A DNA stretch of 64,000 bases from the NCBI GenBank assembly GCA_038087875.1, contig CM075995.1, forward strand, positions 3,846,001-3,910,000, written 5' to 3'. This DNA comes from Malacoraja senta (lineage: Eukaryota). The notes beneath the pieces were generated by a model, which was given only the letters and a program-made list of their open reading frames with translations, searched no databases and was not told where the DNA came from. Shown here in pieces: positions 60,932 through 62,481 of this stretch (positions are counted from its first letter, which is position 1; every line of letters begins with the position of its first letter). Position numbers and translations under genes: made by a program.

Positions 60932-62481
60932 TAGCGAGGTTACAAAACCTACCTTCAGCGGCGCTCCAGATCTGCCACTGGCTGCGTGTGCGACTCCGGA
61001 GCCTTTGATGGAGAGGGGCATTAAAATGCAGGTTTGTATCGCTTGTCGGAGAAGGATTTCCTCGGGCTGCTAGTCGATGAGGAAAAATCGATTGGACTTC
61101 CGTTCCCGTTTTTTTTTTTTTAATCGCTGGACTATTTAATCATTGGATTAAGGTAAAAAGCAACTTCTAATGCCCTCAACGCCTTCAACGTAACGGATCG
61201 CTATATCAGGACAAAACAAACGGTAAGTCGTTTATTTCACATATAATCTTGCTTCTTGGGGTGGCTTTAGTCTAATTTCACGATTCGAAAATGTTATTTA
61301 GTGCCCATACGAATCGGCCGTGTCTTGCCTGCCGATATGGGCTTAAAATTTACGGCAACGGCAACGTTCCAATCGATCACATGCCAGAAACACCCACTCG
61401 CAAAATTATTAAAATTCTCTTTTTTTTTGGACAACCATGTCATAAGAGCATCTAAATTGTCTATATTTTGTGTTGTTGTCTATCCATAATCAATATTTTC
61501 ACACTAAATATCCACAACAGTTTTAGTCACATGTATTGTGCAAAAAATAATAATTTTGATTATATTGAGAGTGGATGTTTCTAGATTAATTTATGGGAAT
61601 TAAACATTAAATTCCTTCCATTTGGCATATAAGTTCATGACAGCGAGATTTAAAAATCATGTTATATTGTGAATTATTTTTCTGAATGGGATCAGTTTGT
61701 TATTTGGATACTTTGGCTATATAAAATGTGTTGCCTTTTCTTAAGAAATGGACAGATGTTTAGATCTAGTAATTGAATTTAGATGAATTTAATTGATTTG
61801 ATGAAACTGATGAATATGAATTTTTTGTTGGCTATTTACTATTTGTTTTAGCATTTAACTTTATCATTTCTACCTTTTTTCTAAAACTGCAATAATAACT
61901 TGTTTCTGTTAATGCTGTTCAGTGTTTTTTTTCCTTTACATTTTAAACAGATGTCTCTGAAGAAGAAATGCAAAATTGACAATCCAAATGCCCAGCAAAA
62001 GAGACTGATTTAGACAGCATTCGCAGAGATTATCCAAATGTGGACTACTATAAATGTGATGATCTACAGGACATTCCTAATGGGAAAGTAGTGGGCAGAA
62101 AGGAATGTCATGCATGGTTTGAAGAGCAAAAACCCATAGTTTACAATGCCAAAGTTGAAAAGTTGAGGAAAAACAAGGTGTACAGAGTTGCTTATTGGTT
62201 ACAATCTGAGGAGTATGATGATGCTACTGATTATGATAAGCCAATGTACCAGCTAGCAACTGATCTTCTCCATAAAGACTTGGTCTATTGCTAGAAATTG
62301 TAATTTATTTACCTATCTGTTACGGATTTACAGCATATAATACAATAATATTAAAGTTCTGATCTTGAGAATATCACATTTTTGAACTTTCAAGGCAGTC
62401 TGGGTGTTTATTACTATTTCCGTCACAACGGTCAATTTTGTAATTAGCTACAATTAGGTAACTAACTAATTATATGCTTTA
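60932..62481. mobile_element. Longer relative of the 3244-4282 TIR transposon, interrupted by a DIRS element
   Basis: Starts TAGCGAGGTTACAAAACCTACCTTCAG and is collinear with 3244-3915. About 660 bp of extra sequence follows, then it rejoins at TTTTGTAATTAGCTACAATTAGGTAACTAACTAATTATATGCTTTA. Confidence 0.88.
61951..62294 (+). pseudogene. Putative terminal exon encoding a Spin/Ssty (Spindlin) Tudor-like domain
   Basis: Pyrimidine tract and CAG acceptor at 61950; frame open except for one TGA (61977-61979); VVGRKECHAW..YNAKV..YRVAY..MYQLATDLLHKDL. Confidence 0.5.

Follow-up and report, generated by a model that had tools for sequence, protein, structure and literature searches.

A hAT-like DNA transposon clade with a predicted Spindlin-type Tudor domain at the C-terminus of its transposase

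Fusions of chromatin readers to the proteins of mobile elements mostly involve PHD and chromodomains, including a hAT-chromodomain fusion in sponges (10.1101/2021.11.30.470311, with 823 fusions in its supplement), and in 2025 the Ectocarpus element Gypsy-10_Ec32 was called the first reported transposon with a Tudor domain (PMC12477816). In chromoviruses, in Gypsy-10_Ec32 and in the sponge hAT-chromodomain element, a reader module is joined to the integrating enzyme, as in the element described here. Those systems, however, are LTR elements or lineage-restricted chromo and PHD fusions, whereas the present case is a clade of DNA transposases found over many phyla. Further background on the known systems is given in PMC12905397, PMC8721813 and PMC9004415. 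Our literature search returned no report of a DNA transposase with a Spindlin or Tudor tail; one could stand in subscription journals, in Repbase Reports or in Supplementary Table 6 of 10.1101/2021.11.30.470311. Here, we describe a clade of hAT-like DNA transposons whose transposase ends in a Spindlin-type Tudor domain, the folds of both parts being predicted. Our best explanation, to which we assign a probability of roughly 0.55, is that the locus is a deleted copy of a hAT-like element, and that the Spindlin-like tail of the parental transposase would read methylated H3 and tether the enzyme to it.

The window analyzed is a stretch of 64,000 nucleotides from Malacoraja senta (positions 3846001-3910000 of a chromosome contig; genome of 1.94 Gb). 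On its forward strand, positions 60932..62481 are the left 1,550 bp of a non-autonomous deletion derivative of about 1.87 kb. CATCAGC flanks this transposon on both sides as a 7-bp target site duplication (TSD), with the left copy at 60925..60931 (forward strand) and the second one behind the right terminal inverted repeat (TIR), outside the window. The left TIR spans 16 bp (60932..60947, forward strand) and is identical to the right TIR in 14 of 16 positions. A reading made from the sequence only had let the element run from 60932 to 62481. Its left end is borne out by the family copies, which share it, but they pass 62481 and reach the right TIR about 320 bp later. In the window copy, right TIR and second TSD lie about 5 kb past 62481, beyond a nested element, and the last ~320 bp of the transposon are found at L056:4830-5150, equivalent to window positions 67229-67549.

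The nested element begins at 62482..64000 on the reverse strand, splits the transposon and continues past the window (L056:83-4829), about 4.75 kb in total. It contains decayed tyrosine recombinase, reverse transcriptase and methyltransferase-like frames resembling those of a neighboring copy, and we read it as probably DIRS-like. A related DIRS-like copy in opposite orientation lies about 4.5 kb further on (L056:9404 to L057:3937), and the methyltransferase match of the DIRS-like elements to Dam/PCIF1-like proteins is weak (E 3e-4 to 5e-3). Elsewhere in the window, a Gypsy-like LTR element has an open frame of 1,431 codons that encodes reverse transcriptase, RNase H and integrase domains (17808-22100, reverse strand); one transposon copy with a full-length ORF (L042) adjoins an element seemingly of this Gypsy-like family. 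Tandem arrays of 48-bp units (56406-56990, 12.3 copies, with open frames on the reverse strand) and of 44-bp units (55394-55569) were also observed. Judged by ORF translations, the window further holds several LINE copies in fragments, which belong to two or more families (27714-33009, 38289-39940 and 43220-46713; on the reverse strand, 22367-25148 and 37269-41350).

Within the window copy, the transposase ATG at 61951 opens codons 1-15 (61951..61995, forward strand), and this frame stops after 20 codons. At the deletion junction (61995..61998), about 2,595 bp of the parental ORF (L041:3049-5643) are replaced by 2 bases with a shift of frame; codons 881-978 and the stop follow at 61998..62294 on the same strand, out of frame with the ATG. 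The predicted Spindlin-like Tudor domain (parent residues 909-978) corresponds to 62082..62291 of the forward strand, and all predicted pocket residues, i.e., W920, Y929, Y946, F/Y959, D969 and D974, are retained. The domain, as read from the sequence, cannot be made from the ATG of this copy, and the following in-frame ATG (61968) runs into a stop after 3 codons. The frame of about 114 codons reported previously does exist from 61953, with one TGA (61977-61979), the motifs quoted for it and a DLVYC* end at 62294, but it joins two parts: codons 1-15 of this frame are an out-of-frame reading of the transposase N-terminus, and the 98 codons of 61998-62291 are the real remnant. The window copy presumably moved in trans and is itself an ordinary dead derivative.

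A second derivative of the same family (3244..4282, forward strand, 1,039 bp) has both TIRs and a 7-bp TSD but is devoid of any coding sequence. In comparison with this shorter copy, the domain segment is indeed peculiar to the window copy, as had been claimed; genome-wide it is not, as many copies carry it. With 61900-62400 as query, a DNA search gave 1,843 candidates; each of the 40 that were scored carries the segment at full length, one being the window itself and the others showing 95-96% identity, and a 20-mer across the junction has 268 exact matches in the genome compared with 0 for its reversed control. A separate nested insertion is ruled out, as the segment is collinear with the parent. 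In contigs of related organisms, a joint resembling that of 3244-4282 is the deepest.

Copies open for 978 codons were first seen by a protein search of the genome. According to 15 fetched loci, the parent is a 4.27-kb element with 16-bp TIRs, whose termini read TAG...CTA, and one unspliced ORF of 978 aa starting with MSPKKK. A search with the transposase core (167 candidates) found the 978-aa frame in 12 of 150 scored copies and a 977-aa frame in one more; some unplaced contigs among these copies may be second haplotypes. Those complete 978-aa-frame copies that were measured are 99.4-99.9% identical to L041, and we conclude that the family moved recently. Perfect 7-bp TSDs flank 26 of the 29 long copies with both ends (35 loci taken, 6 left out as incomplete). 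In a set of 29 distinct elements (loci L002-L055; 38 rows, 9 of which repeat an element as read on the other strand), the 7-bp TSD is perfect in 25, has one mismatch in 3 and is absent in 1, and no perfect TSD of any other length between 4 and 10 bp, including 8, was found for these elements. The target sites (L041-L083) show a preference for C-W-W-W-W-W-G, with C first in 16/26 and G last in 13/26. True TIRs and a 7-bp TSD rule out a Helitron, a Crypton or an element with a TA TSD. As a best guess, we take the catalog name of the family to be hATw (Repbase/Dfam), which has 7-bp TSDs.

The sequence-only reading interpreted the domain segment as the last exon of the transposase or of an accessory gene. 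Both splice motifs it named are present in the sequence: donor-like ACG|GTAAGT at 61220..61228 (forward strand), a candidate splice site by its motif alone, and a strong acceptor-like pyrimidine tract at 61926..61950 (forward strand), ending at G61950 with its AG just 5′ of the transposase ATG. The segment does belong to the transposase, but it is neither an exon nor part of an accessory gene, because the domain ends one uninterrupted 978-aa ORF and the ATG directly follows the "acceptor". Any intron there would thus sit in the 5′ UTR, and the tract is at most the end of such an intron. Likewise, the DDE transposase expected to splice onto the exon was recovered when the family was reconstructed, but as one unspliced ORF. 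Among the joints listed for contigs of five presumed RNA runs of related organisms (X1, X2, X4, X7 and X8 of 22 listed, their RNA nature being guessed), none connects the donor with 61951, a result that is silent on splicing or expression. One contig of run X4 joins 58 foreign letters just before the AG-ATG (61949), which could be an upstream exon on the acceptor or chance.

A spliced last exon, or a stand-alone reader protein of the short copies kept by selection, would account for the two motifs, for the second ATG (61968) opening a domain-holding frame of 108 aa in 14 of 27 short copies (the window copy not among them), and for the occurrence of the same deletion joint in contigs of two other organisms. 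Nevertheless, we consider either form highly improbable. The parental ORF is unspliced, and in the window copy a stop follows the second ATG, while the stretch from the last upstream stop to the donor-like site has no in-frame ATG. The frame of the first ATG spans 18-46 codons in all short copies read (27 of 28), the domain segment carries a stop in 9/28, and pN/pS is 0.86. Further, an in-frame version of the junction, as expected for the ancestor of a mini-protein, has 0 matches in the genome, and the derivative at 3244-4282 also moved without the segment. Private changes in long copies are equally neutral (pN/pS 0.9), so the decay of the short copies excludes a host use of single copies, but not selection on master elements, for which pN/pS is uninformative due to too few shared changes.

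Transposases of the hAT superfamily have C/DxxH after the second Asp, and an N-terminal THAP domain is a feature of the P superfamily. In the aligned homologs of the parental protein, D429 (74/75), D506 (74/75) and E784 (75/75) are conserved, and C531 and H534 of a CxxH motif are found in 75/75 rows. A model of the 978 aa (pLDDT 84.8) begins with a helical domain at the N-terminus and a disordered stretch; coiled coils and the core come next, and a helix of 58 residues (825-882) leads to the terminal domain. Foldseek placed Hermes first (E 1.1e-6) and the P element transposase as the second fold (E 2e-4). The hAT structures (Hermes; PDB 6dwz, 4d1q, 8sjd and 2bw3; E 1e-6 to 7e-5) share with the model a DDE core with helical insertion, and the CxxH and short TIRs are common to both. 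On the other hand, the protein described here is 978 aa long, contains extended coiled coils and carries a Tudor-like domain at its C-terminus, its TSD has 7 bp instead of the canonical 8 bp, and Pfam detected no BED, hAT dimerization or THAP domain in the parent or in 22 homologs. The P element transposase (PDB 6pe2, 6p5a) is similar in fold, but its match is weaker than that of Hermes and its THAP domain is unmatched here. We regard the transposase, on the basis of its predicted fold, as hAT-like but not as a canonical hAT. Families of hAT elements that have a 7-bp TSD are known (PMC12730594, PMC4455052) and subgroups with TSDs of 5, 6 and 7 bp exist (PMC12730594); hATm is ruled out by its TAGGGTG ends and 8-9-bp TSD, as described in PMC6004678. 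Residues 12-110 of the parent (L041:3037-3333) form a confidently modeled N-terminal helical domain in the place of the BED finger, with no Pfam match; it is a candidate for TIR binding.

Residues 340-978 retrieved 125 relatives. Bony fish, limpets and snails, starfish, a crinoid, a priapulid, a sea spider, Hydra, a brachiopod and a sponge are represented among the 120 listed, none of which is annotated as a transposase. Of the listed relatives, 105 extend to the core's end; 87 of these carry the terminal domain, and most of the 18 domain-less ones end in or before the linker helix. In a core tree of this clade alone, with 30 rows selected to include named taxa and to cover its range, the domain occurs across the tree, and the fusion is therefore probably ancestral to the clade. 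Mean column conservation is 0.56 for the domain, compared with 0.62 for the core and 0.40 for the N-terminus, and a protein-library search with the domain found 190 proteins at E 0.001. We are nearly certain of this architecture of transposase and domain.

The resemblance to Spindlin and Tudor domains noted from the sequence alone was supported by structure prediction. A model of the domain derived from 100 sequences (pLDDT 92.7) shows four strands followed by a helix and one more strand, very likely a Tudor fold. Of the checks proposed earlier, Foldseek with the predicted structure ranked Spindlin1 first (E 0.011, TM 0.50), with no row at E 0.001, and the Pfam search was negative: no profile, Spin-Ssty included, matched the window peptide at cut-off, and parent and 100 members also stayed below the 25 bits of PF02513. 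In a search of 48,161 representative chains, Spindlin-4 was first (Z 6.4, rmsd 3.1, 68 aligned), tying with the RDM15 Tudor domain (6.2) and a TraI barrel (5.9) in the wide search, which also listed TnsB (Z 4.4). The TraI barrel is not a histone reader. After re-alignment, the top 24 rows were all Spindlins and the SMN Tudor domain reached 4.5. The best match was to residues 125-193 of Spindlin1, i.e., repeat 2 (Z 7.6, rmsd 2.2 Å, 66 residues), although every Z of the domain remains below 8, the caution level of the tool for common arrangements. Repeat 2 of Spindlin1-4 (PF02513; PDB 7e9m, 5y5w, 4mzh, 4uy4) is thus the best structural match, and the match also covers the helix and final strand that follow the Spindlin barrel, up to residue 193. 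Identity to Spindlins is 13-19%. The 978-aa model contains one Spindlin-like domain, whereas Spindlins have three tandem repeats; the two also differ by about nine extra residues after the third strand and by the fusion to a transposase. The Tudor domain of Arabidopsis RDM15 (PDB 7de9, an H3K4me1 complex; rmsd 1.8 over 57 residues at Z 6.2) belongs to a host protein and lies 1.4 Z below the best Spindlin chain of the re-alignment.

Comparing the domain profile with the three repeats of the host Spindlin gave a probability of 72% when trimmed (E 3.5e-5) and 56% untrimmed, and column-shuffled controls (n = 40) reached at most 1.2%. Per repeat, the profile scored 14.0 bits for repeat 1 (equaled in 0/1000 shuffles), 3.5 bits for repeat 2 (32/1000) and was equaled in 239/1000 shuffles for repeat 3, i.e., the sequence profile favors repeat 1 while the structure aligns to repeat 2. 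Below the Pfam cut-offs, the 100 members matched Agenet (7), PTM_DIR17_Tudor (5) and Spin-Ssty (2; best E 0.041). No significant match to the domain came from sequence searches of PDB and Pfam, made with the window peptide as well as with profiles, and the ESM Atlas returned unnamed clusters only. The C-terminus of P0264, a distant relative of 1,029 aa, has the best Spin-Ssty score (14.6 bits, E 0.028), and P0264 is a possible bridge sequence. Taken together, Spindlins come out consistently as the nearest match of the domain, though not decisively so. A Tudor/SH3-type barrel with another job (partner binding, DNA contact or oligomerization, as in TnsB of Tn7 or TraI), its Spindlin rank reflecting a common small fold, would explain the Z values below 8, TraI and TnsB in the same list, the Pfam scores below cut-off and an uncertain fourth cage residue. 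We judge this unlikely, as Spindlins lead in each of three structure rankings and in one profile comparison, the match extends over the post-barrel helix and last strand of Spindlin, and the acidic tail of the domain suits a basic peptide.

The host itself has a Spindlin gene with three repeats at C1:146910001-146913122, found with equal scores also on C1031, and the two finds are probably two haplotypes. A Spin-Ssty search of the genome detected this host gene only (6 matches of 18 candidates). Intact and very young copies of the transposon coexist with it in one genome. Apart from this clade, the long proteins found as bridges between Spindlin and transposase comprised only four Spindlin gene models, probably mis-joined (21 hits, weak evidence); a further search added two proteins.

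In SPIN1, F141, W151, Y170 and Y177 form the H3K4me3 cage, D184 holds H3 R2, with an about 90-fold loss upon mutation, and D189 together with E142 holds the A1 amine (PMC3967050). Repeat 2 of the host Spindlin was numbered after SPIN1 by equal spacing. In the sequence alignment, the first three cage residues are matched by W920, Y929 and Y946, and D184 and D189 by D969 and D974. Aromatic residues occupy 920 in 74/75, 929 in 75/75, 946 in 73/73 and 959 in 67/73 rows; D969 is found in 73/73, and 974 is D or E in 69/73. Y177 is paired with P/S962 in this alignment; allowing for one extra helical turn, F/Y959 is probably the fourth cage residue, a register inferred from secondary structure. E142 has no acidic counterpart at 921. 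The tail 947-978 is acidic in 73/73 rows, with a median net charge of −8, and such a tail suits a basic peptide more than it does DNA.

We propose that this single domain, resembling Spindlin repeat 2, would bind a methylated H3 tail, most likely H3K4me3. W920, Y929, Y946 and probably F/Y959 would hold the methyl-lysine in an aromatic cage, and D969 and D974 may take the roles of D184 and D189 in SPIN1 by gripping H3 R2 and the free A1 amine. The long helix 825-882 could let the module reach the nucleosome beside the target DNA, and the domain would thereby tether the transposase to chromatin bearing the mark. Given the predicted pocket, binding of methyl-lysine is fairly probable, H3K4me3 as the ligand is a tentative assignment, and an effect on insertion sites is conceivable but doubtful. 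That the family reads chromatin, chooses targets in this way and bears on the origin of Spindlins, all suggested in the sequence-only reading, stays at the level of inference.

Flanks resembling CpG islands were found for 0/29 copies compared with 5/112 control windows, all N-free and drawn from 40 regions, and the median CpG o/e of the flanks was 0.50 versus 0.41 in controls (p 0.35), a comparison of low power that covers survivors only; selection against promoter insertions would hide a CpG-island bias. The absent flank bias counts for a different use of the same conserved pocket, i.e., reading methylated histones on the element's own marked donor copies, or competing with SPIN1-type silencing at young elements. 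In mouse stem cells, SPIN1 is reported to bind and repress young transposons with H3K4me3 and H3K9me3 (10.64898/2026.08.20.746118), and the present host has a Spindlin gene of three repeats. However, a single repeat would read one mark rather than H3K4me3 and H3K9me3 together. The clade is also found in genomes from sponges, cnidarians and molluscs, in which we know of no three-repeat Spindlin. We hold both uses to be improbable. Tethering of the transposase through methylated H3 remains our preferred reading. Its boldest extension, that a pan-animal clade, intact and recently mobile here, steers insertions via H3K4me3 as read by one Spindlin-type module, and that the host captured and triplicated this module to give its three-repeat Spindlin, a silencer of transposons, is in our view more improbable still.

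The near-identical full-length copies represent a natural transposase for binding and insertion-mapping experiments, and this intact young enzyme is possibly a chromatin-directed tool for gene delivery. Reader-guided insertion is established for LTR retrotransposons, and a Spindlin-type pocket would extend it to cut-and-paste elements. A clade kept over sponges, cnidarians, molluscs, echinoderms and fish would provide a precise ligand to test, and its transposase module opens the question of where the Spindlin repeat originated.
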